From contig CAWIGY010000075.1 of assembly GCA_963835565.1 (NCBI GenBank), forward strand, positions 88-64,087: a DNA stretch of 64,000 bases, given 5' to 3'. The notes under the pieces were generated by a model that was not told the origin of the DNA, ran no database searches, and saw only the letters and a program-made list of their open reading frames with translations. Made by a program: the position numbers and the translations under genes. Source of the stretch: an uncultured delta proteobacterium. Lineage in GTDB: Bacteria; Myxococcota_A; Polyangia; Polyangiales; Polyangiaceae. Positions 13,655-58,178 of this stretch are shown piece after piece (position 1 is the stretch's first letter; each line of letters starts with the position of its first letter).

Positions 13655-13712
13655 TCACCGGACGAATCGCGTTCTTCGCCGAGAACTAGTTAATGATCTT
13701 AGCGGGTTATCC

Positions 13713-14270: not shown

Positions 14271-14372
14271 TTTTGATCGAAAGCTTCCCCCAAACACTCA
14301 ATCTGCAGCACTGGCCAAATGGCCTGCCGCGGTGTCGCACACGGTTCCCAGTGAGCTGCTACGGTATCCAGC

Positions 14373-14873
14373 GTGCCGGTCCGCTTGATCTTAATGGGGC
14401 TGCTATTGCTAGCCCTGATTGTTTGGACTCTGCCGCCTGTGAGCGTTACGGCGCGTCGGCAAATCTCGCGCTGGGCAATTCGGATTGCCATTGGAGTGGG
14501 CTTATTAATTCTGCTGCGCCTGGGATTGCCGTGGTTGGCAGTCATTGGCACCGCCTTGGTTGCCGTGCTGCGCTTGGCAACGCCGATATTGGTTCGCCTG
14601 TTGCCGTTCTGGTTGGCCCGGCACAATCAGCCGAATGGGCCTGGAATTCCGGGGCAAAATGCGGGACCGGCGGGATTTCGCAGGCCACCCGACATGACCC
14701 GTGCGCATGCACTTGAGGTTCTGGATCTTCACGAAGGGGCTTCTCGCGACGAAATCCTCAATGCGTATCGAGAGCTTATCAAGAAGGTCCACCCCGATCA
14801 CGGAGGGTCATCATACTTAGCCGCAGAAGTCAATCGAGCGAGGGATGTACTGCTGTCGAAAGACACCCAGTGA
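14373..14873 (+). CDS. membrane-anchored J-domain (DnaJ-like) protein
   Basis: N-terminal TM helices. C-terminal J domain with an HPD motif (ILNAYRELIKKVHPDHGG). Confidence 0.8.
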   Translation: MPVRLILMGLLLLALIVWTLPPVSVTARRQISRWAIRIAIGVGLLILLRLGLPWLAVIGTALVAVLRLATPILVRLLPFWLARHNQPNGPGIPGQNAGPAGFRRPPDMTRAHALEVLDLHEGASRDEILNAYRELIKKVHPDHGGSSYLAAEVNRARDVLLSKDTQ

Positions 14874-14961
14874 TTGCGGTGCGTGCGATGCTTAGCGCTC
14901 ATGACTCTTGGATGCGTTTGCTGGCGTCGAGACCGCCGGCACTTTCAAGCGTGGTGCCCGC

Positions 14962-16230
14962 CTAAATATCCGACCGAACTCCCGCATACGGTAATGTATA
15001 ACAACGGGAAAGCAGCGACTCGACGTAGTCTGCTGGCAGAGAAGCGCAATACATCTGAAGACAATTGAGGTAATAGCTGACCTCGTCGCACGTCGTGCAC
15101 GTAAGCAGCGCATTCAGTCCGTCAATCCACGCAGAGTTGAGGGTCCCGACGCAAGCGATCAGCGAACTGTTGTTTGCCCAACCACAATATCCAATCGCCG
15201 ATTTGAGCCCCGTAAAAGAGCAATTCGACGAGCCACCCGTGCCTTGGACTGACTGCCCGCCGGTACCGGGGCGATACTGCCGGTTGTAGGCAAAGCGCTG
15301 GGGATCTTCCCAAATTTGGCGTAGGGTCTCATTGCGCAGATTGCCTTCAACGAATTCTGCTGGCAAAATCATGCACCCCTTGACGTCACCACAACTGGTA
15401 ATGCCCAAATGGCGAATCCCGGCAAAACAACCGAGCCAGCAACGCGACAGCGCCCCATCGGCTGAACGCAGCCGCGGATCGTCGGTGGTCCACCAGCCCA
15501 ATGCGTCCGTGATAATGGGTCGCAGCTTAGTTCTTCGGGCAAGCCGGCGCAATGTCGCGAGGAGTTCCGGCATGTCTTGTTCCTCCAAAATCAGAGGACT
15601 TCCTGCAGCTCGCCCCATCGGAAGCGTCGGTTGCAGCTGCCAACCAATGGCGCCCGCGCCGAGCAGCTCGTCGCCCATGGATTCAAGTTCTGGCAAGGAC
15701 ATGCGGTTGACTTGCGTGGTTACCCCCGCGGAGATGCGCGCCGCCCTCAGTGCTGAAATGGCTTTGATGGCCTGAGCATGGGCACCGACAGAACCCCGCT
15801 GAGCATCGTGGCTAGACCTCAGGCCGTCAACACTCACTGTGACTGAATTCACACCCGCGTCTTTCAGCTGACGCGCGCAGGTGGGGTCTAGACCTGTGCC
15901 TGATGTGATAACTTCGACAAGCATACGGCGAGCACGAGCCTCTTTGATGAGCCGCATGAGATCCGGGCGGCATAAGGGTTCACCGCCTAGAAAACTCACG
16001 CGCTGGCAACCGAGGTCCTTAAGCTCAGACAGCACGCGAAACAATTCGTCGGTGGTCAGCTCGTTGTCGGCGGCACGCCCGCAATTTGAGCCACAAGTGA
16101 CGCAACGACAAGGACAAGCCGTCGTAAGCTCGAATTCCGCTGCATCGAGATGTGGCTTGAGAAGTAGCGGCAACAATGCCTTAGAGTCGGGCTTTGCTTG
16201 CTTCGATTCATCGTTACCAGCGAATGTCAT
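14962..16230 (-). CDS. radical SAM enzyme with atypical SPASM-like C-terminal region
   Basis: CxxxCxxC motif in CPCRCVTC. The GGEP motif and CFAGIRHLGITSCGDVKGC match a first SPASM half. The distal cluster reads CTTCDEVSYYLNCLQMYC after a Gly-rich insert. The ATG overlaps the stop of the upstream radical-SAM gene (ATGA at 16227-16230). Confidence 0.85.
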   Translation of the reverse strand: MTFAGNDESKQAKPDSKALLPLLLKPHLDAAEFELTTACPCRCVTCGSNCGRAADNELTTDELFRVLSELKDLGCQRVSFLGGEPLCRPDLMRLIKEARARRMLVEVITSGTGLDPTCARQLKDAGVNSVTVSVDGLRSSHDAQRGSVGAHAQAIKAISALRAARISAGVTTQVNRMSLPELESMGDELLGAGAIGWQLQPTLPMGRAAGSPLILEEQDMPELLATLRRLARRTKLRPIITDALGWWTTDDPRLRSADGALSRCWLGCFAGIRHLGITSCGDVKGCMILPAEFVEGNLRNETLRQIWEDPQRFAYNRQYRPGTGGQSVQGTGGSSNCSFTGLKSAIGYCGWANNSSLIACVGTLNSAWIDGLNALLTCTTCDEVSYYLNCLQMYCASLPADYVESLLSRCYTLPYAGVRSDI

Positions 16231-17351
16231 GGAGAGTCGCTTCCTTCGTGAGCCGCGCCTTCTAACAGGCGCAAGCAATGCCGGTTTTCATAGATCGTCC
16301 CGGTCGTATAATAGGACATAATCGGGCAACCCGCGCGGCACAATGTTCCTAAGAGGCACCGCGCGCATCCCCCTGTCAAGCGGGTAGGATCGAATTGTGT
16401 GACGTAAGAGAAGCGCTTTTCGTCATTCCAAATATCGGCCAATGATTCATGGTGGAGCGATCCCGCGTCGAACTCAGCGGGCAGCCCCGAACAGCCACGT
16501 ACTTTGCCCGCGCAACTAATCGACAATAGTCGAACCCCGGCGTTGCACCCAAACCACATCATTGGAACGGTGCGATTGCGAATCTCAAGCTCCTGCCTCG
16601 AACAGTAACCGATGGTGTCTGTAACTTCGATTGGGGGAAATCGAGTGTGAGCGCGCCCTTGCACAATCAGGTCGGCTAGGGCCGGCAGTTGCTCAGGTGC
16701 GAGTACGTAGGGCCGACCGAGCGCTTGCACATGGGCATTGGGTATGGCCAACTGCAATTGCCAATGCTCAACACCGAGCGACCCCAATAACTCGCCGAGC
16801 GATTCGAGCTCAAGCCAATTATCCTGATTGATTTGCGTAATAATGCCAACTGGTAGATGCGGCAGCGCGCGCCGGATGCCATCGAGAGTCGAATCAAAAG
16901 CTGAAGTAGGATGCCCCGTGGGGGCAATTCGGGTTCGATTGTGGGTGTCGCGCAGCCCGTCAACTGAGACGCTCAGGCCATTGACGCCTGCGCGCAGAAG
17001 GCGTCCAATCATCGCATCATCGAGCCAGGTGCCATTGGTAATCAGCTGCACGCACAACCCCAGCTGCTTCAGGTACTTGCAGAGACCTTCCCAATGTGGA
17101 GACAACAAGGGCTCGCCGCCCGTCAGGTTAACCCGTCTACAGCCCAAGTCGCAGAGCTCATCGGCGACCTGCGTCATCTGCTGGAGCGAGAGTTCATTGG
17201 CGTGAGGAAACTTAGCATGCGTTTCGCAGTGGATGCATTCCAAGTTACACTGGTTCGTGATGGACCAAATGCATCGCTCTGGAATACGACGGATTGCACC
17301 TAACGGATGTCGCCACTGGTGGCCTTCATGTTCGTTCGATGCTGTCAACAT
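16227..17351 (-). CDS. radical SAM/SPASM-domain enzyme
   Basis: CNLECIHC (CxxxCxxC) and GGEPLL. SPASM region is canonical (GCNAGVRLLSISCAGKVRGC ... GGCARCLLGTLCRAGC). An AAGGA Shine-Dalgarno sequence lies 9 nt upstream of the ATG at 17351. Confidence 0.85.
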   Translation of the reverse strand: MLTASNEHEGHQWRHPLGAIRRIPERCIWSITNQCNLECIHCETHAKFPHANELSLQQMTQVADELCDLGCRRVNLTGGEPLLSPHWEGLCKYLKQLGLCVQLITNGTWLDDAMIGRLLRAGVNGLSVSVDGLRDTHNRTRIAPTGHPTSAFDSTLDGIRRALPHLPVGIITQINQDNWLELESLGELLGSLGVEHWQLQLAIPNAHVQALGRPYVLAPEQLPALADLIVQGRAHTRFPPIEVTDTIGYCSRQELEIRNRTVPMMWFGCNAGVRLLSISCAGKVRGCSGLPAEFDAGSLHHESLADIWNDEKRFSYVTQFDPTRLTGGCARCLLGTLCRAGCPIMSYYTTGTIYENRHCLRLLEGAAHEGSDSP

Positions 17352-17368
17352 AATTCCGCATCCTTGAA

Positions 17369-18115
17369 TCAAACAAGCCAGCGAGCGAGCGCAGTCGATA
17401 CGGCCAGCAGAACCTCTGGTGGAATTGCGTGTGATCCCGCAAAGGCCATCCAAGTGACGTCCCAACCGGACTCAACCAGTTGGGCCTGCAATTTCTCGGC
17501 GACAACATAAGGCAAGATTGGATCCAACTGTCCGTGGCTGAGCAAGGCGCGCATGCCAGCGCGCCGCCGCGCATTCTCTTGAAATCCATGGGTAACAACC
17601 ATGGCCCCACTCATATAAATAAGCCCAGCCAATGGGCGGTTATCGTGCAACACGGCGTCCAGGCACGCGATAGCACCCTGAGAGAAACCTCCGAGCACGA
17701 TTCGATCCGAAGCCAGATTGAACTTAGCTTGTATCGCGTCAAGCAGGGCAATCACGACTGGACGCGCGGCATAAACGCCATCGGTAGCGCAGCGCGTGGC
17801 CAATTGAACCTGCCCGGTTAACCTGGCTAAATGAAGATTACTATCTTTAGTTTCCCACCAGCCGCGAGCTCCAGCAAAGCCCGACCCCCTGGAATCGCCC
17901 AAGTCCAAGGGCCCTTCAGGAATCACGAACCAAGTACCCTCCGGCGCGTTAAGCTCGTTTGCAATCGATATTAAGTCGGTGCCAGCGACTCCGAAACCGT
18001 GGAGGAGCACCACCGCGGCGGTAGGCATTTGCCCAGGCGTCGCGGGACAAGATTTGATATGGACGTTACTGGGGAATCGCAACTGACAGTGGCTGCACTT
18101 CCTAATAGCAGCCAC
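17369..18115 (-). CDS. alpha/beta-hydrolase (phospholipase/carboxylesterase family)
   Basis: Motifs VVLLHGFG, the nucleophile elbow GGFSQGA, SHGQLDPILPY and GSHAIP. The start is uncertain. The 5' end overlaps the upstream ORF by 145 nt. Confidence 0.75.
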   Translation of the reverse strand: MAAIRKCSHCQLRFPSNVHIKSCPATPGQMPTAAVVLLHGFGVAGTDLISIANELNAPEGTWFVIPEGPLDLGDSRGSGFAGARGWWETKDSNLHLARLTGQVQLATRCATDGVYAARPVVIALLDAIQAKFNLASDRIVLGGFSQGAIACLDAVLHDNRPLAGLIYMSGAMVVTHGFQENARRRAGMRALLSHGQLDPILPYVVAEKLQAQLVESGWDVTWMAFAGSHAIPPEVLLAVSTALARWLV

Positions 18116-20229: not shown

Positions 20230-20993
20230 GTGAAAATAGAGCCGATCCCCTGCCTGTCTGACAATTACGCGTACTTGATCGGGCGCGACGGTTCGCGCGA
20301 AGCGCTGATCGTTGATCCGAGCGAGTCCCTGCCTGTGATGCGCGCGCTGGAGGAGAGAAAACTTCGGCTCTCGGGGATTCTGTGCACGCATCATCATTGG
20401 GATCACATTGGCGGTGTGGAGGAGCTTTGCAGTGCTTACCCGGGCTTGCCCGTGTTTGCTTCGGACACTGACGTAACCCGCATCAATGGCGTGACTCGCG
20501 GTATCAGTGATCATGAGTCATTTGATTGCTTGGGTCTTCACTTCAACTGCCTGAAAGTGCCGGGGCACACGCTGGGAGCGCTTGCGTATTGCGTGAACGA
20601 TGCCGTGTTCACGGGTGATACGCTGTTTGGGGCCGGCTGCGGTCGATTATTCGAAGGCACTCCGGCGCAGATGCATACATCGCTGATGTCGTTGGCGGCA
20701 TTGCCAGCGCAGACTAAAGTCTATTTTGGCCACGAGTACACGCGCTCAAATCTCGCATTTGCTCGCCGCATTGAGCCGCAAAACCAGGCAGTGCAAGCAC
20801 GCCTGCACCGTGCCGCCGTGCCCAAAATAGCTGCACCACACCCAGCACCATTGAAGAAGAGCGCGCCACCAATCCATTCTTGCGTTGTGCCGAACCCGGC
20901 ATAAAAGCCACGCTCGGGGCTGCATTTGCCGAGTCTAACGACGTCGAGGTATTTGCCGAAGTGCGGCGGCGCAAGGACTCGTTCCGGGCATGA
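20230..20993 (+). pseudogene. gloB: hydroxyacylglutathione hydrolase (glyoxalase II), C-terminus in another frame
   Basis: Metallo-beta-lactamase motif THHHWDHIGG. The canonical C-terminus PSTIEEERATNPFLRC...RRRKDSFRA is read only after a frame switch at about 20810-20835. Confidence 0.85.
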
Positions 20994-22036
20994 ATTTCAA
21001 AGGTTCATCCGCAAGCGCATTCGGGGCGTGGCGGCACCGGCTGCGAGGAGTCGCGTTAGCATTGCTGCTCGCGGGCTGCAGCGCCCATCGCTGTGGTGGC
21101 AATGATGATGTCGCGGCGGCACGCGCCAGTTGGGTAATACCCAAAGCTTCGGTTGCCCCAATGGCGGCGTTATCTCCGTCGAATGACGCAGGCGCGGCGC
21201 ATGCACTCAAGCAGGGCACTGAGGAGCTCACTTGGACATTTGATCAAACTGCTTTCGGTCGCATTGATGTGGTTGTCGTGTTGCCGGATCGGCTGCAAAA
21301 TGAGCGCTTCCCACTACTGATCGCACTACACGGTCGCGGCGAGGCCATGAAGGGACCCGTGCGTGGCGCGCGCGGTTGGGTGGACGACTATGCGCTCGGA
21401 CGCGCGATTCGACGCCTGGGAATGCCACCGCTAAAACCTGAAGACTTCGAGGACATCGTAGATTCAAAGCGACTTAGCCTTCTGAATTCAATGCTTCAAT
21501 CACAGCCCTATGCGGGACTGGTCGTACTTTGCCCGTACACACCGGACATGCTCGCCGGCGAACGGCCGTTCGAGCGCGCGCTGCCTTATGCTCGATTCTT
21601 AGTGGAAACTTTGCTCCCGCGCGCAAGCCGCGAACTGCCAGTGCTCGGCACGCCGGAGGCGACAGGCATTGACGGGGTCAGCCTAGGTGGTCGCGTAGCG
21701 TTACTGTCCGGCCTTTACCAGCCGCAGGCCTTCGGAGCGATTGCAACCTTGCAAGCGGCATTCGATTCAAGTGACGCACCGCGACTGGCCGCGCTCGGAA
21801 TAGCAGCCAAGAAGACAAATCCCAAACTCCAGTTTCGATTCCTTACCAGTGACGGCGACTATTTCTTAGCGGCCAATCGCGCGATTGATGCAGCCTTCTC
21901 ATATTCACACATTGAGCATGAGTTCGTGGTAGTTCCCGGTCCCCACGACTACATTTTCAATCGGGGCCCCGGCGCGCTTGAGATGCTCCTTTACCACGAT
22001 CGAGCCTTGCGCGGGCGTAAAGTGCAGGGAGAGTGA
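20990..22036 (+). CDS. lipoprotein esterase (putative-esterase / esterase-D-like alpha/beta fold)
   Basis: Lipobox LLLAGCS. Motifs LIALHGRGEA and GIDGVSLGGRVAL (GxSxG). Confidence 0.65.
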   Translation: MNFKGSSASAFGAWRHRLRGVALALLLAGCSAHRCGGNDDVAAARASWVIPKASVAPMAALSPSNDAGAAHALKQGTEELTWTFDQTAFGRIDVVVVLPDRLQNERFPLLIALHGRGEAMKGPVRGARGWVDDYALGRAIRRLGMPPLKPEDFEDIVDSKRLSLLNSMLQSQPYAGLVVLCPYTPDMLAGERPFERALPYARFLVETLLPRASRELPVLGTPEATGIDGVSLGGRVALLSGLYQPQAFGAIATLQAAFDSSDAPRLAALGIAAKKTNPKLQFRFLTSDGDYFLAANRAIDAAFSYSHIEHEFVVVPGPHDYIFNRGPGALEMLLYHDRALRGRKVQGE

Positions 22037-30902: not shown

Positions 30903-31652
30903 TTACCCTCCTGCAACGCAGTTTCTAGTTACCAATGTGCCCGTAGCTGGGCAGGTGCAGACGTAGCTAATCGTAACGCCAGCTCCTTCATTCCAAACGT
31001 AAGCGCAAGGGTCTGAGCCCGCAGTGCAAATTGACGCAGTCGGCGCTGATGTGGACGGGCTATCTGCGCATGCCGCGGGCGTAGTACTCGAAGAACCGCC
31101 AGTGCTTGTATCACCACCTGTTGCCGGCGCTCCACCTGTTGCCGGTGCTCCACCTGTTGCCGGTGCTCCACCTGTTGCCGGTGCCCCGCCAGTGGAAGAC
31201 GCTCCACCACTTCCGGTGCCCGTACCGGTGCCGGTGCCCGTTCCACTTCCAGTTCTGGAGCCCGTACCGGAGCCGGTGCCCGTTGTAGTTCTGGAGCCCG
31301 TACCGGAACCGGTGCCTGTTGTAGTTCTGGAGCCCGTACCGGAGCCGGTGCCCGTGCCGGTGGCGGTTGTAGTTCTGGAGCCCGTACCGGAGCCGGTGCC
31401 CGTGCCCGTTGTAGTTGTAGTTGTAGTTCTAGTGCCCGTTCCGGAGTTTGTGACCGTTGTAGTTCCGGAGACCGTGACCGTGCTAGTGGACCTAGTTCCG
31501 CCGGTTCCAGAGCCTGTTGTAATTCCGACAGTTCCCCCAGTGCTCGCGCCGAGACCGGAATCTTGCGAAGAACCGCAGCCAATCAGTAAACCCACTCCCA
31601 AACTGGAGACGGCTAGCCTGTTGATTAGCCGACGGTGATATGACCTAATCAT
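30903..31652 (-). CDS. Thr/Gly/Ser-rich repetitive lipoprotein with Cys-containing C-terminal domain
   Basis: Lipobox LLIGCGSS. Repeats GTGSGTGSRTTT and GGAPAT (x4). The C-terminus has 6 Cys. Confidence 0.7.
   Translation of the reverse strand: MIRSYHRRLINRLAVSSLGVGLLIGCGSSQDSGLGASTGGTVGITTGSGTGGTRSTSTVTVSGTTTVTNSGTGTRTTTTTTTGTGTGSGTGSRTTTATGTGTGSGTGSRTTTGTGSGTGSRTTTGTGSGTGSRTGSGTGTGTGTGTGSGGASSTGGAPATGGAPATGGAPATGGAPATGGDTSTGGSSSTTPAACADSPSTSAPTASICTAGSDPCAYVWNEGAGVTISYVCTCPATGTLVTRNCVAGG
31114..31185 (-). repeat. 4 x 18-bp perfect or near-perfect in-frame tandem repeat (encodes GGAPAT)
   Basis: Units CCACCTGTTGCCGG(C/T)GC(T/C) at 31114, 31132, 31150 and 31168. Confidence 0.9.
31252..31426 (-). 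repeat. 36/48-bp in-frame tandem repeats (encode GTGSGTGSRTTT)
   Basis: Units start with GTTCTGGAGCCCGTACCGGA at 31252, 31288, 31324 and 31372. Confidence 0.9.
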
Positions 31653-34552: not shown

Positions 34553-34756
34553 CTAACGGGACTCCTCCCAGCCGGTTGCACCCAAGCTACTAATCCAACC
34601 TGAAAAGTCAACAAGCCGTGATTTAGATTTTCACTCCTAACCCGCAGGTTCGTCCCGATGTTTTGATTGTGTTGGTTGTCTGGGCCTCGGCCCAGACAAC
34701 TGCCTTGCCGAAAACTTGACTCAAACGCCAAAACTCTTTCGCCTTAAGGTCGCTAA
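34553..34756 (+). repeat. ~200-bp intergenic repeat element, copy 1 (full length)
   Basis: Starts CTAACGGGACTCCTCCCAGCCGG. Hairpin GTTGTCTGGGCC..GGCCCAGACAAC at 34675-34700. Ends ...CCTTAAGGTCGCTAA. About 85% identical to copy 4. Confidence 0.9.
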
Positions 34757-37051: not shown

Positions 37052-38708
37052 TCATCGTTCGCGCTCCCTCTTGTAGTTTCGTCCCAACAAGATTGCTACA
37101 CCCAGCAGGCTAAATAGGCCAAGTAACCTCTGAGCCCTGCCGGTGCCAGCACGACAAGCGCAGGCACCGCCCTGCAAGCGCTCACCGGGTTGCAAATAAA
37201 TTTGACCCGCGTCGCTGGGCACCGTTCCAACAACGCAACGGCCGTCGGGGCCACACACGTATCCAGTGCCGCAGGCGGCATCATTGGCACAAACCGCGCA
37301 CTGACCTTGTACACAGACAAACCCATTGCACATGTTCGAATTGGTACAAGCTGCCCCAACGCCAGCGACACAACGGCCATCGGCGACGTCACATACGAAA
37401 CCGGTGCCACAGGCGGCATCAGTGACGCAAGCCGCGCACAGGTTTTGTACACAGATAAGCCCATTGCAAGTGTTCGAATTGACACAAGCTGCGCCAACGC
37501 CGGCGACACAGCGACCATCGGCGCCGCACACGAAACCAGGGGCACAGTCGGCATTATTGCCGCAAGCCACGCACGCTCCCTGCAAACACACAAGCCCGTA
37601 GCAAGTGCTGGCATTGGTACAAGGTATTATCCCGTTGCCTGCGATCAGACAGCGGCCATCGGGGCCACACACAAACCCGGGGCCGCAGGCGGCATCGTTG
37701 ACGCAAACCACGCACTGACCCTGTTGACAGATCAGCCCGTCACAGTTGCTCGAGTTGACGCAGGGGGTCCCGCCGATAAACACGCAGCGCCCAGTATCAC
37801 AGATGTAGCCCGCGGCGCAGTTGGCATTCACCGCGCAGGGCTGCGCTAAAATGCAATTTCCGTTATTGCAAACACCCCCGTTGGGGCACTCGGCGTTAGT
37901 CGTGCAACCAGCAGGAGGAACTACGATAACGGGCACATTGGTGTTAGGAGCTACGGTAGCTACACAGGGCTCCTCCGCGCCAACAACTAAGTCACCCGCA
38001 CCCAAGTTTACGGTTTGGTTAGTCGAGCGAACGAACAGGTTTGCTTGGCATGCTTGAGCTACACCAACCAGTGTGAGGTCCACCGAGGACTGCAAGTAGC
38101 CATGGACAAGTTCATTCACGCGTATCGGGTCCAAGTCAAAGTTGGTCTCGGTAAGCACTTGAGCAGGCTGAGTCGCAATAGTCGTATAGGTCCGAGTCCC
38201 ATTGTCGTATTGAAATATCGAACCCGTGGCAGTGTTGTTCGGCAGTTCGCTGAACCTTGATTACGTAATCATAACCACCGCTGGTAGTATCCGTGGTGAA
38301 ACTCGCGTCAAGTTCGGCGCCCGTGGCGCTTCCACCCGTTGCAGTGTTTCGATCAGCATCAATGAAGACGTAGGTACTTACAAGCCCCGGCTGCGCATTA
38401 GCAATCGAAAAGTAGACCCTCGAATAGAACCGCGCAGCATCAGTCGCGACGTACACGGTGCGAGCATCAATGGCTTGTTCGGGGAGCGTAAAGTTATTGA
38501 GGCCATCGCCGGCTACGTCTTCACTACCCCAGGGCCAATTAGTTTCGCCGGTCGCGTCAATCGTAAGTATCTCATTCAGTGCCGGGCCAGCCCGATTGCC
38601 GACCCAAGTCTGGGCTTGGGCGTTGGCGGGACTCAGCATCAGCGATAACGTAACGGGTCCCAATAACGCGAGACTTCGAAGATTGAGTAACGTTGACATG
38701 AGATACAT
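37052..38708 (-). pseudogene. secreted Cys-rich repeat protein with MYXO-CTERM-like sorting tail, one frameshift
   Basis: GGAGGG Shine-Dalgarno sequence, then signal peptide MYLMSTLLNLRSLALLGPVTLSLMLSPANAQA from 38708. Four ~42-aa repeats of C-x-NS-x-C-x-G-x-C-x5-C-x-C-x3-D/A-C-x-G-x-CG-x-DGRC. The tail is GGACACRAGTG...LLGVAILLGRNYKRERER. The frame switches at about 38160-38250. Confidence 0.7.
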
Positions 38709-39113
38709 GTGAATTCCCTCCGTCATTTCGCTCAGTAAGGGTACCAAATATTTCTTCAAATGGGCCAATATGCAGGGTAATTTGTGGCAGCATTTTACGC
38801 TGTGCTCGGTTTGTTCCAGCCCGGGCACATTCCAGGGCCTCGCGCTCTTACCTAAGCCTACCCGCGCAACCGCGATTTTATCGCGCGAAATGAAGCAATG
38901 GCGTTCGGTGATTGGCGAAGCAGAATGTGCCGTTTTTGGGGTTGGGGCCCCGAAAATCAAACCGATTAAAAAATCGCAACGAACGTGAGGGTTAGAGACG
39001 AACGACCCTTGGAGTACCGATTTAACCTCGCTAAGATGGGATTGCGCTAATCTTGTGAACAGGGAAGACTTTCTCGGCAGAAGATCCCAATAATTAGTCC
39101 GGTTAGTCATCCA

Positions 39114-42936: not shown

Positions 42937-42957
42937 GATGGGACTTCTCCCAGCCGG
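42937..42957 (+). repeat. solo copy of the left-end module of the repeat family
   Basis: GATGGGACTTCTCCCAGCCGG versus the consensus CTAACGGGAATCCTCCCAGCCGG. Lies about 55 nt upstream of the cyclase start. Confidence 0.6.
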
Positions 42958-43101
42958 AAAGCCATGGCAACCGGGCAATGCCGCCGGATGCTATGAATTC
43001 GAAAGAATTTGGGTCAGTTGCTAACAATCGCCCACTTTCGTGCTAGGCGAGGGCTCGCAAAAGTCGTGCCGTCTGATTGATCGACCCTAATCACGTCGCC
43101 A

Positions 43102-44268
43102 TTGTCCGTGGCTGACTTCTTTTTGCGGTTGGCCTTCTTCTCCTTGGCGCCCGTAGCAATCGTGTTTGCCGCGGAGCTATTCCCCGTGCGCGGGGCCATT
43201 ATCGATGTCGGACTAGCGCTCGGGCTGTTCATTGCCGGGGAGGCTGTGCAGCGATGGGCCTCACAAACGCGATTGGTCAAGGGATTCTTGCGTCAGGCCC
43301 TCGCCTTTGAAGCGTACTATCGAAGTCGCCCACCGCGTCCGTTCCTATTTTATCTCGCCTATCCACTGCTATTCCCGTATTGGATTCTCAACAAGGACGC
43401 GCGGCGAGAGTTCCTGCTATTTCGAGGGTACACATTAGGCGGCCTGCTCATACTGCTAGTTTCATTAGGCTGGCAATTCTACGACTCCTGGGCCCCTGAG
43501 CTCAGTATTCGCCAGTATACGCCCTATGTCCTGATTACGCTGGGCGTCGAGACGCTCCTCGCCTTAGCACTGCTGATGCCAATTGCGACCACAGTTGTTT
43601 GGTACCATAGCAGCCGGCGTCGGGGTCGCCTGGTTATTGTGCTTTTGGCAGGGCTCGCGTCAACGGGCATCGTATCTTACAAGGTGATGAGTCGAAGATC
43701 TCCCGTTGTTTCATTTGCCACGCGTGAAAGGGTCGCACTTCGTACGCAGGCCTCCAAACGCAAAGCCCACCAGTCCTTGCTAAATGCCGTTCGCGCTGCC
43801 AATAAGAACATGGCGAAAGCGCCCGCCATCGAGGGTGACGGCACGGTGATGGGAGAGCCGCTGGAAAAAGCCAGCGACACGCTGGAGCACTTTTATAAAC
43901 GCGACGAGGCTTGCGCGTTCAGTCTCTGGGCTAGTCCACGGCGCCATCCGAAGGTGCTCGTCATCTATTTTGAAGCGCGCCGCAAACAGCGCCCGATTTG
44001 GGTAGCGATCCGAGGTGACGGCACGGAAATTCGAACGCCGTCGCAATTGCCCAAAGGCGCATTCAATGCGATGCTGACCGCATCCGAAGCTGACGATGAT
44101 TTCCTGGAAATGTGGCCCGATGCGCTCGATTTGCCAGAATCCGACGACGCAACGCGCCACGGCAAAACAAGCCCTGCTCAGCCTGCCAAAGCAATCCCCG
44201 CTTCAAGTTCGCGAAAGTCCAAACCGCTACCGTCCGCCACTTCGCACACTCGCGCACGCCGCGATTAG
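43102..44268 (+). CDS. membrane protein of unknown function (about 6 TM segments plus a soluble C-terminal domain)
   Basis: 388-aa ORF with a hydrophobic N-terminal half and a basic/acidic C-terminal half. No motif recognised. Confidence 0.5.
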   Translation: MSVADFFLRLAFFSLAPVAIVFAAELFPVRGAIIDVGLALGLFIAGEAVQRWASQTRLVKGFLRQALAFEAYYRSRPPRPFLFYLAYPLLFPYWILNKDARREFLLFRGYTLGGLLILLVSLGWQFYDSWAPELSIRQYTPYVLITLGVETLLALALLMPIATTVVWYHSSRRRGRLVIVLLAGLASTGIVSYKVMSRRSPVVSFATRERVALRTQASKRKAHQSLLNAVRAANKNMAKAPAIEGDGTVMGEPLEKASDTLEHFYKRDEACAFSLWASPRRHPKVLVIYFEARRKQRPIWVAIRGDGTEIRTPSQLPKGAFNAMLTASEADDDFLEMWPDALDLPESDDATRHGKTSPAQPAKAIPASSSRKSKPLPSATSHTRARRD

Positions 44269-44465
44269 CGCGTTTATGTCGCTACTCATTGAGCCTGAAC
44301 CAATTTTTCAGTATGCTTTGTTGTCTGGGCCAGGACCCAGACAACCCACACAATCAAAACGTCGGAACGAACTTGCGGGTTAGCAGCGGAACGCTAACAT
44401 TCGGGTTGCCGACGTGTCAGTAGAGAATTGAGACGTGAACCGCACCGGCTGGGAGGACTTCCGCT
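44265..44465 (-). repeat. ~200-bp intergenic repeat element, copy 2 (full length, inverted orientation)
   Basis: The reverse complement carries the left module AGCGGAAGTCCTCCCAGCCGG. It also carries the core TAACCCGCAAGTTCGTTCCGACGTTTTGATTGTGTGGG. Hairpin at 44320-44345. The terminal CGCTAA overlaps the TAG stop of the 43102-44268 gene. Confidence 0.85.
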
Positions 44466-46284: not shown

Positions 46285-46417
46285 CTAACGGGAATCCTTC
46301 CAGCCGGTAAAGTCCTGTTTGCCGTTCCTAATTGAATTGCCGGCACGCGGTGCGCGTGGTTTCGTTGGTGACTCGCTCGTCCGTTCCGACGTTTTGATTG
46401 TGTTGGTCGTCTGGGCC
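46285..46417 (+). repeat. repeat element, copy 3 (truncated: left module, different core, right core, half hairpin)
   Basis: CTAACGGGAATCCTTCCAGCCGG ... GTTCCGACGTTTTGATTGTGTTGGTCGTCTGGGCC. The second hairpin arm is absent. Confidence 0.8.
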
Positions 46418-46900
46418 ATCGAGGCGTTCGCTCGGGGTCTACATGTGATTCTCAATGCACCCTGGGATATCATCGACTATGCCGAACAGGCTCGGGGCGC
46501 GGGCGCTGGCGCGGAGGCTGTGTCGTATGTTGCAATCGGATCGCCAGAACAAGCCGGAACATGGTTCGGTGTGGGCGAAGATCGGAATCTATCCCTTGCA
46601 CAAGTGATCCGTGCGAGTACGAATGCTGGCCGCATGCCGGACCTGGACAATGCTCACTCTACCCCTACGCCGGATGGCGTTCAAAAGCGAGTGGTGGAGC
46701 TCTGCGAAAGGTTAGAATTGTCACTTTCGTCTGAGGATGCGCGCTGCCGGGTGAAGTGCAATACAGAGTTGAAGCAACTTCGACGGCTCTGGCAAGAGCA
46801 TCCCTCGCTTTTTTCGACGGATACTATTCGGGCACTCAAGAACTTTGCCCAGCGACTAAAAAACACGCAATCGGTCACGCTGAGGACCGATGGGTACGAT

Positions 46901-48441
46901 ATGCAAACGGCCAGTGTTCGAGTGAGCGATCCGGACGAGGTCCTAAAGAATGTCTTCGGGTACAACTCGTTTCGCCCGGGTCAGCGGGAATTGATCAACG
47001 AAGTGTTGTCTGGGCGCGACGCCGTCGGGATCATGCCGACTGGTGCGGGAAAGTCGTTGACCTATCAGATCCCGGCTCGAATTCTGGCGGGCACAGCCTT
47101 GGTGGTGAGTCCTCTAATAGCGCTCATGAAGGATCAGGTGGATGCTCTCGCCGGCGTGGGACTTCGCGCGACATATCTGAATTCAAGCCTCTCTTACCAG
47201 GAGCGCCGTTCGCGGATTGACCGAGCAGCGGCCGGAGAATTCGAGCTAGTTTATGCGGCGCCCGAAGGCTTGGAGGCCTCCGTTGCTCAGGTGCTGGGGC
47301 GTGTCAACTTGAGTTTGATTGCGGTGGACGAGGCACACTGCATCAGTCATTGGGGACATGACTTTCGCCCGGCTTATCGCAACCTCGCCGGGCTCAAGCA
47401 GCGCTTGGGCAATATTCCCGTGCTAGCACTGACGGCAACGGCGACCGACGAAGTGACTCAGGATATCATTGAGCAACTGGGCATTTTGCAACCAGCGTTG
47501 TATCGGGGTTCATTCTTTCGCAGTAACCTTCAGCTTTATAGCTATGCTAAGGGCAGCCGACAGAGAGGGCTCTCTCAAGATTCCTCCGGTGCGAGAAGCC
47601 ATTACCAAGCTCATCACTGAACGCCCCGACGAAAGCGGCATCGTATATTGCCTATCGCGCAAATCGACCGACAGTTTGGCGGATTATCTCAGGCATCGTG
47701 GCATTCGAGCGAGCGCCTATCACGCCGGATTGGGGGCTGCCGAGCGCTCGAAAGTTCAGGAGGCATTTTCTCGAGACGACATCGACGTTGTGGTGGCGAC
47801 TATCGCTTTCGGCATGGGGATCGATAAGTCCAACGTACGTTACGTGATTCATCGCGATATGCCCCGCTCGATCGAGGGATATTATCAGGAGATCGGGCGT
47901 GCGGGTCGTGACGGTGTGTCGAGCGATTGCATCCTGTTTTATTCTTGGGCCGAAGTGATCGCTTATGACCGATTTGCGGCGCAAGCCCCGCCTGTAATCA
48001 GTGAGCGGATACGCAGCCAAGCGCGAGAGATGTTCCGTTTCGCGTGCGAGCCAGGCTGCCGACATCAGCGCTTAGTCGGATACTTCGGCGATCTTTTGGC
48101 ACAATGCGGGAGTTCCTGCGACCAATGCAGGCCGCGAAAATCTTTTTGCCTCTACCAAAAGGTTACACCGCGAACCTGCGAGTCGTGGTTCTAAAGCAAG
48201 TCGTTCGGTTGACAATGGCGAACCTGGTGGACTTTTTGGCCAATTGAAAACGCTAAGACGCAAGATAGCCGACGAACAAGGGGTTCCTGCTTTCGTGGTA
48301 TTCAGTGATGCAACGCTTCTGGAAATAGTTGCGCGCCACCCAATTTCACCGCGTGAGCTATTGGACGTACCCGGGATTGGTCCAGTCAAGCTCGAGCGTT
48401 ATGGGACGGCATTCCTCGAACTTTTATGCCGCGCGCGTTAG
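46901..48441 (+). pseudogene. recQ: ATP-dependent DNA helicase RecQ, split over three frames
   Basis: Motifs FGYNSFRPGQ, MPTGAGKS and DEAHCISHWGHDFRP. After a switch at about 47540-47600: VYCLSRKSTD, ATIAFGMGIDK, QEIGRAGRDG and the Zn-finger Cys residues. After a switch at about 48150-48245: the HRDC domain. The start is uncertain. Confidence 0.85.
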
Positions 48442-51780: not shown

Positions 51781-52005
51781 CTAACGGGAATCCTCCCAGC
51801 CGGTTATACCCAACTTGCTAATCCAACTTGAAAAGTCGACAAGCCGTGCCTTAGATTTTCACTCGTAACCCGCAGGTTCGTTCCGACGTTTTGATTGTGT
51901 TGGTGTTGTCTGGGCCCCGGCCCAGACAACTGCTTTCTGAAAACTTGACTCGAGATGTATGAGTTCGGGGCCTTAAGGTCGCTAACGGGAATGCTGCCAG
52001 CCGGT
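51781..52005 (+). repeat. repeat element, copy 4 (full length, 51781-51985) followed by a second left-end module (51982-52005)
   Basis: CTAACGGGAATCCTCCCAGCCGG ... hairpin GTTGTCTGGGCCCCGGCCCAGACAAC ... CCTTAAGGTCGCTAA, then CTAACGGGAATGCTGCCAGCCGGT. Begins 7 nt from the SDR start codon. Confidence 0.9.
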
Positions 52006-52259
52006 GCCGCCAACTATGCCATATTTCACCTGATAGGTCGGTAGGTCGCTAGCTGGCTATTTCCTCCGCCACAACGCTAGCGGACTGCGCCGCTGGGGTT
52101 GGGGCCCCGGCGGCCAACAAGATGAGAAAACTACGGTCTTGCTTCGGCATTGGCCTGCGCCATGGTGGCGTGAAGGGTTCGATCGCGGCCGGAGGTATTC
52201 CGAGGCATACAATAGGTCGATGGTTAGATTTGTGCGGTATCAACCTGGATTAGTTTAGC

Positions 52260-55200
52260 TCAATTCGCGACCACCTCAAGCGTGGTGGCGGCTGCGACGG
52301 TTTTTTGTGTCGGCTCGTAATAAAGGTGCGCTTCGGCTCCGCCGTCCGCGGCTTTTACGGGCATGGTCGCCTGCAAGCGATATTTGATCGACAGCGTCGA
52401 GCTGGGCGACAATGTCGAAAGATAGAGGATCAATTGCTTACCGGTTAGCTCGTATTGGGAAAGAATGTTTTGCTGCACATAGGCATCGAGATCTTCGGTC
52501 AGCACCTGGAAACCTGGAGGAATACCAAGAGTTACCAATACCATGTTCTGCGTCTGTGCACTTGCATTACTTAGATTCACAGCAGCCGTTACTATGTCAT
52601 TCAAGAATAAACTGGTCTTGTCGTAGCTTACAGCGATGCTGAGCGGCCCCTGCGTGTCGGGGCTAGCCTGATCCCAAGGCACGTTATAACCGGAGACAAG
52701 ATTGAAACTGACCTGTCCGTCACCCGTGAAGGTTAGATTGACGGCGTGGCTACCGACACTCGCCTGTGAGATGAGATCGACCGTCGTCATCACGTCCGAT
52801 TGGGACTCGGTGAGAGAAACCGTATTGAAAGGTTGTCCATCGACGAGTACTTGCAATGTGCCAACCGCTCCTTTGGTACCCTTGGTGGCTGCGAGCAGAA
52901 GAGTGCGCAGCGTCCACACGGTGGCCTGAGTGGAGCCGAAGTTGCCCAATGTGTCCTTGGATGCGGTCAGGAAATTGAGAGCGCTTTCGATGGTTTTGGC
53001 ATCACCGCCCGCCTGCAAAAGTGCCGATGTGACCAAGGCAGTGGTCGCGACCGTGCTATCGTTACCTGAACCGTAGAAGTTGGTTTGCGTGCCACCGCTG
53101 TCCCAGGAAACCTGGTCACCGTCGGTTTTTTTCAGCGCGTCCAAACGCGAAAGAACGTCAGTTAGCACCGAGTCGGTGGGAGCCGCCAAAGCAAATGCGT
53201 TGGCAATCAAGGCGAGCGTGTAGGCATCAGGCGTTTCGTCCGCGTAATGCGCTTTGACATACGCTACGCCGTTTCCAATAGCTGCACTTGTGATCCCAGC
53301 GCTGGCCAATGCCCACAGCGTAAATGCGGTATTTCGGACTTTGCTGGTGAAAAAGGAGAAAAACTCCGACTTGTCGCCGGTCCAAGAACCGTCGGATGCC
53401 TGCTGCGATATCAGCCAATTGCAAGTTCGACTCAACATCGCGTCGTCCACGGTCTGAACGGTGGCCATGTCCGCGAATTCCATGACTCCAAACGCCGTAA
53501 CCGAAAGGTAAGGCGCGGGGTCATTCGTGCCGAACCAGGAAAAGCCCCCGCCGGGATGCTCAAAGGTCAACAGGCGTTGATAGCCCGCCGACATGAGAGA
53601 TTCGGCTTTCATCTGAATCTCAGGCGTAATTTGCCCGGTGGCCTTCATGTATCGCGTCACGAGCACGTTGGGCCAAGTACTGGATGTAGTCTGCTCGAAG
53701 CAGCCGGTGGGTACTCTGAGAATGCTGTCCAGCCCCTGAATTACTTGCGAGGTATAGGCAGGATATACCTGCAAGTAGAGCTGTTGCGAGCCATCAATCG
53801 AGTTTACAGGAAATGTGACCGACTGGCTTATGCTAGTCGCCCCGAGCGAGCCCGACTGAGCGGAAACGTAAGCCTTGCCATCCGAGACAACATTTACAAC
53901 GCGCGCCACCGCGTCTGAGGCCTTGGACCCAATCGCCTGCACTGTCAGCGTCCCGAGCCCAACCCGGTCAACCTGAACTGGGAAGCGCACGCCTTTTACC
54001 TCCCCGGTTGTAGATCGACCGAAAGATTAGTCTGACCCAGCGCCGTATACCAATTAGCGGCCTGCAGCGATAGTTGAACTGTCTGCGGCGTGTCGAGATA
54101 GTTGTAGATGGAAATTGGAAACTCTACGTGGTCACCCCGTGTCAACGTCGCTGGAAAGTCGATATCGACGAAAAAGTCCTGATATACGAGCAAGCTTCCG
54201 GTGGCGCTGCCTAGGCGACCTTGTGCACTGTTCGCAAGCATTGACACTCGCCACTGTGTGATACTGTCTGCGAGAGGTAAATCCAGCACGGCCTTGCCAT
54301 CGGGTCCGGTGATGAGTTCCGGATTCACGTACAATGTTTCTGGAAAATCCTGACGAACGCGCGGGCTGCTGGTACTCGAATTCGAGATCGACACGTCGAT
54401 TGCCGCAGCTCCTCCGACTGCTGCGGCCACCATGTCAAAACCGCCCATCATCGGGACGGCCATAAGCGGCAGGCCCAGATCAGAGTAGGAAAAACTAAGC
54501 GTGACGTCGTCTGTTGTGCCCGCGATTTCATCGGGGCCGCGGCTGGTGAAGGTTAACATCGTGTTCCAGCTTGAACTGGTTGCGATAGTAAACGGATTGC
54601 CCCAAGCATCGTAGGCCACCGTGGATGCAGCGACAATTTCCCCAGCAATCCAGCCGTGGTTTCCCCGGCGTTGCCGCAAACTGGAGTAGAGACTGTCGAT
54701 GCTGCAACCCTGGCTCTTCAGTTGGGTTGCCGCGTCGGCGACACTTTGGGTCAATACGGTCTTCAGCTGGGCCGTCACGCCGGTGAAGTAGGGCTGAGCC
54801 AGCGTTTTTGCGTCGGATATAACGCTGGCCCAACTGGCATGGGCGATGCCCGTGACAGCACCTTGACCAATCGCGGAAAGCGATGCTTGCGCTCGATCTT
54901 GAGCGTCTTTGGCGGCCGCGACATCCGCAACGGTGGTGTCGTGAAACAGTAGATCGGTTAAGTTTACTTGAGGGCCTTCGATTTCATAGCTGGGATTAGC
55001 GTAAGCATCCTGAAGTTCGAAGAAAGTTTCAAGTAGCCCGGGCTTGGCATCAATCAGCGAATACACGGCTTCATCAACCACCTGCAGTCCCAGTGCAGCT
55101 ACCGCCGGCTGACCCTGTTCATCCTTTACATCGAACGTTAGATGAGCCGAGCTGCCCGGGGTATATGATGCCGAATCCGTCGTCAAAGTTACCGCGAGTG

Positions 55201-57211
55201 AGGTAGCATCACGAGCGAATACCGTGCGCCCCGCGCGCACAATGTTACCGTCGTCGTCAACCACATAGGCTTGGATCTTATTGGTTCCGAGCAGCGAAGT
55301 GTCTACGGGCATCGAGAAGCTTGCGACGCCACTTTGGGTCGTCAATGTGCGCATGTCGACGGCCTGCCCGTCGTTGAGCCAATCGACGTACACGTTGGGA
55401 GAATTGGCCGTGGAGAACACTTGGACATTAATCGTGTCACCCGCCTGGTAGACGGCCTTGTCCGTGCGAACAAGTACATGTTCCTTGCCTGTTTGCAATA
55501 CGACTGGCACCGTCTTTTGCAGAGTCGAACCACTCGTGGGCGTGACTTGCACGTTCAAGGAACTGGGCGCGTCGCTGCCCGGTGTCCAATTGATAACAGC
55601 CTGCCCGTAGACGTCCGTCGTTGCAGACAGCGAGGTGCCGTCAGTGAGCGGGATCATGACAGTGGTGCCCGAAACCGGCGTTCCTTGGGGATCGGTGACA
55701 AACACCAGGAGTTTGTTTTCGACCCCCGTCACGAGTTCACCGCTCTCTGGTACCACAACTACCTCTAGCGGTTGCGAAGCAACTGTAATGACTTGGTCTT
55801 TCTGGACTACCTGACCCGCAGTATCGGTAACGGTGATGTGCAGATTGATCAGAGCATTGCCTTGTTGCAGTGGTAGCCCGATGAGGGATTTCGGCAACGC
55901 GTAACTATAGGAAAAGTGTCCGGACGCATCCGCCTTACCGACGATCCGCCCCAGCGCAGTTTGGCCCACGTCGAGGGAGGAGACGTCAATCGTGACATCG
56001 CTGTTTGAGACGGGCTTGCCAAAGAAATAGTTAGCATCAACGCTGCCGAGGACGGTGTCCCCCGGCGAGTACCAGGTGTGATCAACTACAGCGGCAATCT
56101 GATATTTTGGCAAGGAGTAGCGCGACACTTCGACGGTCTTTTGCGTCGATTGCCCCTGCAGCGTACAGCTTACTGTGAATGTGCCTTGATTGAGCACGGC
56201 GCCTAATTGAAAGTCGGTTGCTGCAATTCCATAGCTGTCACTTTTGATCGATTTTTTGAACAGCTTATTGTTCTTGGCGTCGGAGATCTCAAACAGCGCG
56301 TCCGCGGCGGTTATTGGTGTGTTACCCACATTCAAAGCGAGCATGCGCAGGTGAATCACCTGTCCGGGTTGATAAATGGGTTTGTCCGTGGTCAGCAGCA
56401 CCTTCGAACTCGGATCTTGGACCTTGAGCGAATCGGTGACTCCGGCTACTATCGGGCCTTGCTGGGTGTTAGCGGCGATGCTGTATTGCCCAGCAACGGG
56501 AAGACTGAGCTCCTGTTCGAATACGCCGAAGTTGTCGCTGCTGCCTGAGTAAGTTGAAGCCGCCTGTCCGTCCTGCTGAAGAGTCAGCGTCACAGGAAAC
56601 TGCGCCAGTGGCTGGTGAGCAAGCGGGTTTTCAGTTACCATCCGGTAAACGGCTTTTTTATCGCTGCGCGGAGTCGATGGGCCTTCCAAGCGCAATTCAT
56701 AGGGCTGTGCGGCATACAGCAAGCTGCGCTTGATCGAAATCCCCTGATCGACCGCATCAACGCGCAGAACATATTGCACCATCGGTGCTTGGCGATTGAG
56801 ATCCGACGGCAAAGGAATTGAGGCGGCCAGCGCTTGCGGGGTACCGGCCGTTACATCGTAGGGAACTTGGACCTTAGTAACGGCCTTACCAGAAACCAAC
56901 TCTAACAATTGAATGGTGAGTTCTCCCGACTGCCTTCCATTCTGAAGGGCAATAGGAATGTTCAAGGCCAACTCACTGCCGGTTGCGGTTCCAACGATTT
57001 TGGATTCATCAATGCTCAATCCAGTTCCGCCAGGATTATCCGGTTCACCCAGGACCGTCTTACCTTTCGGATTGGCAGACTCGCGTTTCGCGGTCTCGGA
57101 GTCCTGCGACGAGCAGGCCAGAAACAAAAGCGTCGCCAGTAAGATCGAAGACGTAAAGGATCGCTTCCTGAGGGTGCGTACTTGATTCGAAACTAATGTT
57201 AAGGATGCCAT
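52260..57211 (-). pseudogene. bacterial alpha-2-macroglobulin-family lipoprotein with thioester motif, one frameshift at a homopolymer
   Basis: Lipobox LLFLACSS. Long array of MG-type beta domains. Thioester site PTGCFEQTTSS (CxEQ). The two ORFs join as ...DLQPG-EVKGVRFPV if one G is added to the G4 run (plus-strand CCCC at 54002-54005). Confidence 0.9.
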
Positions 57212-57487
57212 GTCAGTACTCCGGTCCCGCCCAGCTGTGCCAAATGCCGCGGGGCGGGATTACAACGCAAAAGATATTCCAGTCGAAGACCTGCGTGAAA
57301 CGCGGCTATTTGACAGATTCTTCGGCGAAGGTAATCTTCAGTTTGGCACAATATTTGTGCCAGGATTGGGGGCTGTTTCGGCACGCAGGAGCCGGGTGTC
57401 TCAGTGCCGCGCAAACCATCCAGTCTGCACAATCACACAACACTCGAATTTACACACACTGGCGCCGGCTAGCGCGCGGGGCAGGCT

Positions 57488-58178
57488 TCAATTTGAGCTA
57501 GCCGGGCCGCCCCCGGTGGAAGCGATGACTCCGTACAGAGCAATTGTGGCCTGACCGCCCGTGCTTGGTTTGCCACCCGTAGCTAGGTCACCAGTTGAGC
57601 CGCCGACATTATACATAACGCCGTAGTCGACCGTCACTTGGCCGCCCAAGGCGGCGTTGCCACCCGTTGGGAAACCCGCGTCGATGCCTCCCGCTGCACC
57701 GCTGGCGGTCGAGCCTCCCGGGGGACTCTTGGCTCCACCGGTGGCTGCCTTGCCACCGGTGGTCTGCGTGCCAGCCACGATCATCGGGCCGTACATGTAC
57801 TGCGCCATGCCGCCAGTCGCCGATGGACTGCCGCCGTCAATGGCGCTGCGTCCGCCCGTTGCCGAGCCGCTCCGCCGCCTTACCGTCGAGCCGCCCACTA
57901 TCATCGGGCCGTAGGCGGCACCTCCGACTCCCGAACTGCCTGCCGTCGGAACGCCCGAATTGATGCTGCTAGTTCCGCCGCTATTCTTATTCTGGGAGCC
58001 ACCAATGAGCGCCGGGCCGTAGTCGACGTTCACCATTCCCCCGGTCGCTGATGGTGTGCCCGCGTCAACACCGCCTGTTCCCGGCGAGCTGCCCGTGTTC
58101 GGCTCCGCCATTATCCGGCATGCCACCGCAGCCGATGAGCAAAGCGGAGATCGCTGCGGGATACCATCGCTTGTCCAT
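57488..58178 (-). pseudogene. Gly-rich repetitive lipoprotein, signal peptide out of frame
   Basis: AAGGAG Shine-Dalgarno sequence, then MDKRWYPAAISALLIGCGG from 58178. The body (ORF 57488-58126) has 4-5 repeats containing YGP(M/A)(I/L)(V/I)(G/A)G(S/T). The switch is at about 58110-58130. Confidence 0.55.

Follow-up and report, generated by a model that had tools for sequence, protein, structure and literature searches.

At several intergenic positions, the 64-kb stretch of DNA analysed here (the window, meaning the whole of that stretch) carries closely related repeats of about 200 bp, and the question raised by this locus is what kind of unit has come to lie beside so many unrelated genes. 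A sequence-only reading of the same DNA described a discrete repeat family with sharp ends and one strong hairpin, all of which is borne out below, and offered two possible identities for it: an IS200/IS605-derived PATE, or a family of structured small RNAs or leader RNAs. The explanation preferred here, held tentatively and given somewhat less than an even chance, is a non-autonomous mobile element that lacks terminal inverted repeats (TIRs), is specific for CTAA, is built of mosaic modules, and is not demonstrably an IS200/IS605 PATE. The association of the repeat with start codons and the mosaic, recombining character of its copies had no place in the sequence-only reading; the former, which links the left end of the repeat to start codons, is the most interesting unexplained feature of the family.

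Copies and modular anatomy

An nhmmer profile made from the three full copies finds these copies (c1 to c3) at E values of 1e-62 to 1e-67 and a truncated copy (c4) at 4e-21. The members and landmarks in the window are listed below with their coordinates, strand, and the basis of each assignment.

21029..21060, minus strand: left-end fragment (inverted repeat, 84% over 32 nt with 51981-52012; motif match)
34553..34756, plus strand: full copy c1, subfamily A (nhmmer E 7.5e-67; alignments)
34675-34700: counterpart of the P5 palindrome in c1
38929..39110, minus strand: old diverged copy c5 (nhmmer 39001-38929, E 1.6e-6; sequence; alignment)
42937..42958, plus strand: left-end fragment (motif match with 2 mismatches; nhmmer E 0.54)
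44265..44465, minus strand: full copy c2, subfamily C (nhmmer E 9.1e-62; sequence; 99% conserved in strain loci L017/L018)
44320-44345: counterpart of the P5 palindrome in c2
46285..46417, plus strand: truncated copy c4, subfamily B (nhmmer E 3.7e-21, model positions 1-135)
46418..46640, plus strand: leuA C-terminal remnant adjoining c4, given as context because it marks a rearrangement junction (LeuA_dimer domain)
51781..51985, plus strand: full copy c3, subfamily A (nhmmer E 1.4e-66; sequence)
51866..51903, plus strand: near-invariant core TAACCCGCAGGTTCGTTCCGACGTTTTGATTGTGTTGG, directly 5' of the hairpin (invariant columns in three alignments)
51905..51930, no strand assigned: P5 palindrome, or hairpin, of c3, GTTGTCTGGG-CCCCGG-CCCAGACAAC (palindrome search and covariation test)
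51982..52135, plus strand: diverged copy 3b, head-to-tail with c3 and with one common CTAA (nhmmer 51982-52062, E 1.6e-6; the rest by eye)

The copy coordinates given in the sequence-only reading are all correct, and in every full copy the right end reaches CGCTAA 55-56 nt past the hairpin, as that reading had it. Its tally of six copies in 17 kb gives way to at least eight members in 31 kb, all between 21 and 52 kb, with the copies at 38929-39110 and 21029-21060 (both on the minus strand) added; the other half of the window has none. Both left-end motifs that had been described as solo modules were correctly placed, but the one at 51982 is not solitary, being the start of the diverged tandem copy 3b. 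The left-end motif CCGGCTGGGAGGANTYCCG occurs seven times in the window at three or fewer mismatches, against 0.14 expected, and one of these occurrences (21037-21055) lies within an ORF.

The individual copies differ in their surroundings and in their state of preservation. Copy c1 is flanked by the 3' end of a DsbA-like gene (34849) and the start of a flavin reductase gene (34413), both recognised by Pfam matches. Copy c2 sits between convergent genes, and the TAG stop codon of ORF 43102-44268 lies inside its right end (TTAGCG on the plus strand); the 388-aa ORF that ends there was considered as a recombinase and set aside, as it encodes a membrane protein with no Pfam match. Copy c4 is severed at the centre of its hairpin and joined to the leuA remnant, and the LeuA_dimer domain begins at residue 34 of ORF 46319-47620. 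The tail of 3b, read by eye, has a degenerate hairpin (GTTGGGGCCCCGGCGGCCAAC ... GAGAAAAC) and a right limit at about 52135. The left end of c5 reads CTAACCGGAC at 39097-39110. The fragment at 42937-42958, which may reach to about 42990, is 58 nt from the start of an adenylate cyclase gene (42879). The fragment at 21029-21060 falls within codons 14-24 of an esterase lipoprotein ORF (20990-22036; Esterase Pfam match), in which the N-terminal WRHRLRGVALA, with its basic residues, precedes the lipobox LAGC and is encoded by the reverse-oriented left-end fragment. This N-terminus is a possible case of exaptation of repeat DNA as coding sequence.

In the aligned copies, the modules follow one another in the order left end, spacer, core, hairpin, CTGAAAACTTGACTC, and right end. 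The conserved left end is CTAACGGGAmTCCTCCCAGCCGG, and the spacer of about 60 nt sets the subfamilies: A (c1, c3), B (c4 and the metagenome loci L006 and L015), C (c2), and the type of L016 and L009. A 21-mer of the core is identical in the metagenome loci L004, L006, L009, and L015; CTGAAAACTTGACTC, 3' of the hairpin, is moderately conserved; and the right end is CGCCTTAAGGTCGCTAA. Conservation along the alignments is uneven, with the ends, the core, and the stem kept and the spacer variable. A conserved small ORF or type I toxin was rejected as the content of the unit, since a 2-nt insertion in c3 interrupts the hydrophobic frame ...VRSDVLIVLVVWA..., for which there is no conserved start. 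Integron attC sites, dif-like IMEX, and group II intron remnants are likewise unsupported by the anatomy of the element; an attC site has complementary R''/L'' and L'/R' boxes at its two ends that pair into one long hairpin, and here the ends are not complementary and the copies lie in both orientations.

Of the 11 left ends read, 9 have CTAA in front of CGGGA, and the right end finishes in CTAA in all five intact copies and in copy 4a of the sister-strain locus L017, so the copies read bear out the claim that this tetranucleotide flanks the left end and terminates the right. One CTAA only stands at c3|3b (window) and at 4a|4b (L017), the two tandem junctions seen. A single CTAA at a tandem junction is what is expected for insertion beside a fixed tetranucleotide; the CTAA pattern would arise equally by a 4-bp duplication of a CTAA target, or from a CTAA internal to the element. 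When the first 40 nt are aligned locally with the reverse-complemented last 40 nt, the score is 4-6, no better than shuffles (averages of 5.1-6.0), in agreement with the earlier statement that TIRs are absent.

GC content and skew are flat along the whole window, which shows no compositional island, and on this ground a genomic island was rejected. Other features of the window include two in-frame coding tandem repeats, one with an 18-nt period at 31096-31475 in a GC-rich ORF (30903-31652) and one of four 138-nt units at 37243-37794 in a gene for a DUF7107 protein. An outer-membrane efflux (OEP/TolC-like) gene is apparently in two ORFs (6619-7338 and 7363-7956), downstream of AcrB-/HlyD-type genes, and two neighbouring radical-SAM/SPASM genes at 14962-17465 suggest a peptide-modification cluster.

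Strain differences and relatives in other contigs

A sister strain, represented by ENA ERZ25039471 contig_47322 (loci L017 and L018) and reached through a protein cluster look-up, is 97-99% identical to the window over 23.9-51.9 kb and 57.4-60.1 kb. Copies c1, c2, and c5 and the 42.9-kb fragment are present in both strains. At c3, the parts common to both are the first 23 nt and the stretch from the hairpin spacer to GGTCGCT (98.6% identity). The window has a subfamily A interior at c3; that of L017 consists of subfamily B sequence together with a module of 87 nt, a further complete palindrome, and 15 nt of unrelated sequence. Past GGTCGCT the strains are unrelated, and synteny is lost exactly at the right end of c3. 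The strain-variable segment (window 51984-57371 versus L017 2628-9673) contains two alpha-2-macroglobulin-like genes on the window side (52260-53990 and 53996-57211) and about 7 kb with an IS66 (5284-7719) and small ORFs on the L017 side.

At the c4 locus, identity between the strains runs to ...CTCGTCCGTTC and resumes at CGGAATCTATCCC. Between these blocks, the window has the core, half a hairpin, and 165 nt of the leuA remnant, and L017 has a 116-nt module, the core, the hairpin, the right end, and a 19-nt second left end; c4 is thus a full copy plus a tandem fragment in L017 and truncated in the window. A tandem-dimer ancestor, followed by a direct-repeat deletion in the window and a microhomology deletion in L017, would yield both states. 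Two independent junctions fall at the centre of the palindrome, one in c4 of the window (46417|46418) and one in the c3 counterpart of L017, c3' (...TTAGAG|CCCCGGCCCAGACAAC). The leuA remnant is shorter still in the sister strain, and a distant relative, L002, has an intact leuA beside recQ. In the window, recQ appears as two overlapping ORFs (46319-47620 and 47469-48194), and in L017 as a single gene of 537 aa (13536-15149); the split may be either a long-read assembly frameshift error or a pseudogene.

An optional triple-hairpin module of 87-116 nt (L017 9809-9895 and 15320-15435; L009 6718-6812) enlarges the unit from about 200 bp to about 290-320 bp. It is inserted between ...CGTTC and CGACG..., with GTTC at both bounds, at the same position in L017 and L009. 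Of its three hairpins, one has a cUUCGg tetraloop and another, of A5-stem-T5 form, resembles a bidirectional terminator; the differences between L017 and L009 are compensatory. The module is in no window copy, was never seen outside the element, and may itself be a nested insertion.

Beyond these strains, an exact scan of metagenome contigs (JGI) with the core 21-mer returned 12 loci, four of them genuine members (L006 and L015 full-length, L004 and L009 partial) and eight chance matches (seven in one homologous coding sequence, one unrelated). The sole genome-contig match to a degenerate core-plus-hairpin pattern is a partial copy, L016, in the species-representative genome 'MAG: Myxococcales bacterium isolate fen_1139'; an exact 22-mer had no match among the genome contigs, and two patterns had none among viral contigs. 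The best named homologues of the SDR encoded beside c3 are from Sorangium and Anaeromyxobacter, and the host of the family is probably a myxobacterium. Short-read (Logan) contigs of a third strain (L019 1-67 and L020 7220-7304) stop inside c1 and c2, which indicates that the repeat breaks assemblies and is consistent with many copies per genome.

The sequence-only reading had taken the family to be undescribed, and covariance models from Rfam matched no family. The window and six related loci gave no match at gathering score, and in E-value mode, with E allowed up to 10, the best matches had E >=0.57 and 13-20 bits, compared with gathering scores of 45-83 bits. BLAST against PLSDB plasmids and phage records was likewise empty, and six-frame translations of the element had no match at E <=1 among 5.8 billion proteins.

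The hairpin and its possible roles

Within the window, the palindrome is confined to family members and occurs once per unit; its distance from the left end is about 120 nt, and from the right end 55 nt. Just one more perfect palindrome with arms of 10 bp or longer exists in the window, at 57735-57762 (CCACCGGTGG-CTGCCTTG-CCACCGGTGG), and it is unrelated to the family. The stem, GTTnnCnGGG/CCCnGnnAAC, has 10 bp and a 6-nt loop, and across 13 sequences 94.6% of its cells are paired. Six of the ten pairs have changed on both sides, and 0 of 500 shuffles match these values; the double changes include GTTTTCAGGG/CCCTGAAAAC in L009, GTTGCCGGGG/CCCCGGCAAC in L002, and GTTGTTTGGG/CCCAAACAAC in L017. 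The hairpin stem is under selection. G-U pairs occupy 1 of 129 stem cells, and this near-absence gives no ground for preferring an RNA to a DNA hairpin or to a symmetric duplex site.

Folding of the remainder of the unit is unexceptional. Four further helices predicted by RNAalifold on the strand used in the sequence-only reading are 82.2% paired, versus 79.9% when shuffled, and 35 of 500 shuffles are as good (10 sequences); the minimum free energy of the whole element has z values of -0.8 to -2.9 on either strand. The structured sRNA or leader proposed earlier is therefore not upheld as such, because only the hairpin covaries, the other helices equal the shuffles, and the fold of the whole is unremarkable. 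A simpler RNA would be the product of a multicopy sRNA gene on that strand, in which a TTGAAA-N18-TAGATT promoter drives an RNA of about 70 nt, the core serves as a single-stranded seed, and the GC hairpin acts as terminator. Copy c3 has a promoter-like site at 51828-51857 with 9 of 12 matches, TGAAA and TAGAtT keep a constant 18-nt spacing in subfamily A, L016, and L009, and conservation peaks between this site and the hairpin, whose compensatory changes and the presence of the module's cUUCGg tetraloop on this strand only would also suit an RNA. However, subfamily B (c4, L006, L015) is without an acceptable -10 element, a T-rich tail follows the hairpin in c3 only, and in module-bearing copies a strong terminator would end the RNA ahead of the core. 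The single G-U cell, the unsupported outer helices, and the empty Rfam search also tell against such a gene, which leaves the conserved ends, the CTAA junctions, and the link with start codons unexplained. As an account of the whole family it is improbable; an sRNA gene is possible for subfamily A and poorly supported for subfamily B.

The same palindrome, of 10-6-10 form (11-6-11 with the flanking bases), could instead be a duplex site for a dif- or lox-like site-specific recombinase, or merely a fragile palindrome, in which case the repeats would be recombination hot spots rather than transposons. Its two inverted arms of 10-11 bp about a 6-bp spacer, the two rearrangement junctions at its centre in c4 and L017 c3', and arm changes that are nearly always symmetric, with the lone G-U cell, fit this role. 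No recombinase gene lies nearby, however, and the partner sequences at both junctions, judged by eye, are unlike a half-site; moreover, arm variants differ within one genome (L017 c4' has GTTGTTTGGG), which a self-pairing hairpin fits better than the site of one protein. We regard a recombinase site or fragile palindrome as very unlikely to be the explanation of the family.

A hairpin of strict Watson-Crick pairing is also a feature of the PATE reading, in which the unit would be moved as single-stranded DNA by a Y1 HUH TnpA, with cleavage 3' of CTAA at each end. Like IS200/IS605-derived PATEs, the present family is small, non-coding, and TIR-less, with no obvious target duplication beyond the CTAA pattern, which a 4-bp duplication would also explain; one fixed tetranucleotide both flanks its left end and terminates its right end, and tandem copies have a single CTAA in common. 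In contrast to PATEs, which are defined by subterminal hairpins at both ends, the terminal 45 nt on the left and 55 nt on the right, folded as single strands in four copies, have z values of -0.6 to +1.0 and of +1.1 to -1.6, respectively, with no common hairpin. The sole hairpin is internal, at the distances from the ends given above, no related palindrome is common to the two ends, and neither tnpA nor tnpB, nor a Y1 or TnpB parent, was found in the scanned window ORFs or the related loci examined. Given the lack of subterminal hairpins and of any parent among these sequences, the PATE architecture claimed in the sequence-only reading is a label that has not been earned, and we consider this origin quite improbable.

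Several other classes of small repeat invite comparison. The REP, BIME, and REPIN sequences of proteobacteria resemble the family as GC-rich extragenic palindromes with conserved flanks that form mosaics with short motifs, lie between genes, and are recombination hot spots; unlike them, the present unit is about 200 bp long with one palindrome, no inverted REP doublets, and ends fixed by CTAA. The scanned window ORFs contain no RAYT gene or Y1 transposase domain, and the palindrome is never solitary in the window. The REP/REPIN definition therefore fails, with the palindrome found only within the 200-bp unit and neither inverted doublets nor a Y1 domain present, and that of a classical MITE derived from a DDE transposase fails for want of TIRs. 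BOX elements of Streptococcus pneumoniae, ERIC/IRU, and Correia/NEMIS elements are similar in being multicopy, 100-300 bp long, and modular with optional modules. Such elements are able to change the expression of neighbouring genes. TIRs are present in ERIC and Correia elements, and a TA duplication in the latter as well; the present family has neither, and shows no sequence similarity to BOX, ERIC/IRU, or Correia/NEMIS. The family matches nothing described in the resources searched, and its combination of features is found in no one described class, while its general nature, that of a small structured intergenic repeat, is already familiar.

Gene starts and the nature of the family

The left end is directed towards a gene start in 10 of 12 copies, and for four genes in three organisms only 6-13 nt separate it from the start codon; these genes encode an SDR, an aldo/keto reductase, a CopZ-like protein (L006), and a peptidase M15 (L015). 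The left end of c3 is 6 nt from the start codon of the SDR gene (51774, minus strand), a start confirmed by 99-100% homologue coverage, and in c5 there are 7 nt between the left end and the ATG (39114) of the aldo/keto reductase gene. By our own approximation, with a null of 6% per copy, 4-5 such close juxtapositions have a rough binomial P of 0.003-0.0003. The left ends of c2 and L016 point to gene 3' ends. Copies occur in both orientations among genes of mixed orientation, and the flanking genes are unrelated in function: flavin reductase, aldo/keto reductase, SDR, a periplasmic-binding-domain protein, and adenylate cyclase, and further peptidase M15, CopZ/Cu-ATPase, ExbB, HAD, and a sigma-54 activator. 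A riboswitch or shared regulon leader was rejected on account of these unrelated functions and the absence of any Rfam match. Consensus scans, which may not represent the promoter types of this host, found no conserved sigma-70-like promoter on either strand, with c3 alone reaching threshold, and sigma-54 and ECF consensus sequences did not fit by eye.

These positions raise a serious rival, or complement, to a mobile element: a portable 5' regulatory cassette that would supply promoter, 5' UTR, and initiation context to the gene past its left end. The functional strand would be the reverse complement, from TTAGCG to ...CCGGCTGGGAGGAnTCCCGTTAG, copied by recombination with no dedicated transposase. 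In addition to the orientation of the left ends and their closeness to four start codons, copies consisting of a left end only lie upstream of the cyclase gene and within the first 24 codons of the esterase ORF. Where an ATG is only 6-7 nt away from the left end and the opposite flank bears a divergent gene (c5, L015, L006), the genes at the left end would have to take their promoter from inside the element. The concept has a precedent in putative mobile promoters, highly similar upstream sequences that precede non-homologous genes and end near the start codon (PMC3575422), and the present family likewise has homologous sequence directly upstream of non-homologous genes. That class is defined by position only; in contrast, this family also has tandem dimers, a palindrome under selection, copies that face gene 3' ends (c2 and L016), and no recognisable promoter. 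Further points weigh against a cassette: no sigma-70-like promoter is conserved among copies on the required strand, the left-end GGGAGGA is 16-23 nt from the ATG and so beyond the normal Shine-Dalgarno distance, and the optional module would place a bidirectional terminator-like hairpin in mid-leader. Nor would a mere regulatory region be expected to form head-to-tail dimers or to have CTAA fixed at its two ends. A cassette of this kind is, in our estimate, unlikely but well worth retaining.

The preferred explanation remains the TIR-less, CTAA-specific mobile element. It draws on the discrete ends that occur in unrelated contexts in several organisms, the CTAA junctions, and the dimers with a single CTAA, and also on uneven conservation, strain-level remodelling, and absence from orthologous loci of more distant relatives. 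As to the last, the SDR orthologues in the relatives L001 and L002, at 84% identity, lack the element. New copies would be set 3' of a CTAA target, or would duplicate it, by an enzyme presumably supplied in trans from elsewhere in the genome, for which the conserved ends, core, and palindrome would be the required cis-acting sites. Given how often the left end stands, in a fixed orientation, 6-13 nt from a start codon, the element would supplant the 5' flank of the neighbouring gene and probably affect its expression.

Several observations count against this element. In the 64 kb and about 210 kb of related loci, no autonomous parent or transposase was found, the sole transposon seen being the unrelated IS66, and no transposase or recombinase Pfam domain occurs in the scanned window ORFs (most of those >=150 aa), as the sequence-only reading had said of the neighbourhood. 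No empty site was recovered; c1, c2, and c5 are fixed in both strains, and distant relatives (71-76% nucleotide identity) are not alignable in intergenic DNA. Simple transposition does not predict the association with start codons, which a regulatory cassette fits at least as well, and homologous or illegitimate recombination among resident repeats could produce the strain differences without transposition. A more specific proposal combines these elements into a new class of TIR-less site-specific cassette, in which a recombinase would insert the unit of about 200 bp at CTAA, preferentially by start codons and in one orientation, and thereby replace the 5' control region of unrelated genes; the 10-6-10 palindrome would be a recombination or processing site, and modules would be exchanged between copies. 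This proposal is doubtful, and we put it forward only as a rather unlikely one.

Even as a plain repeat family, the unit marks breakpoints of strain-level rearrangement and breaks short-read assemblies, and it creates spurious ORFs and false gene starts, which is relevant to the annotation of these MAGs. If it is a mobile unit that docks by start codons, a poorly known soil lineage would have in it a natural means of rewiring how arbitrary genes are expressed, and docking of this kind, if true, would suggest a transposition or recombination enzyme with an unusual choice of target.
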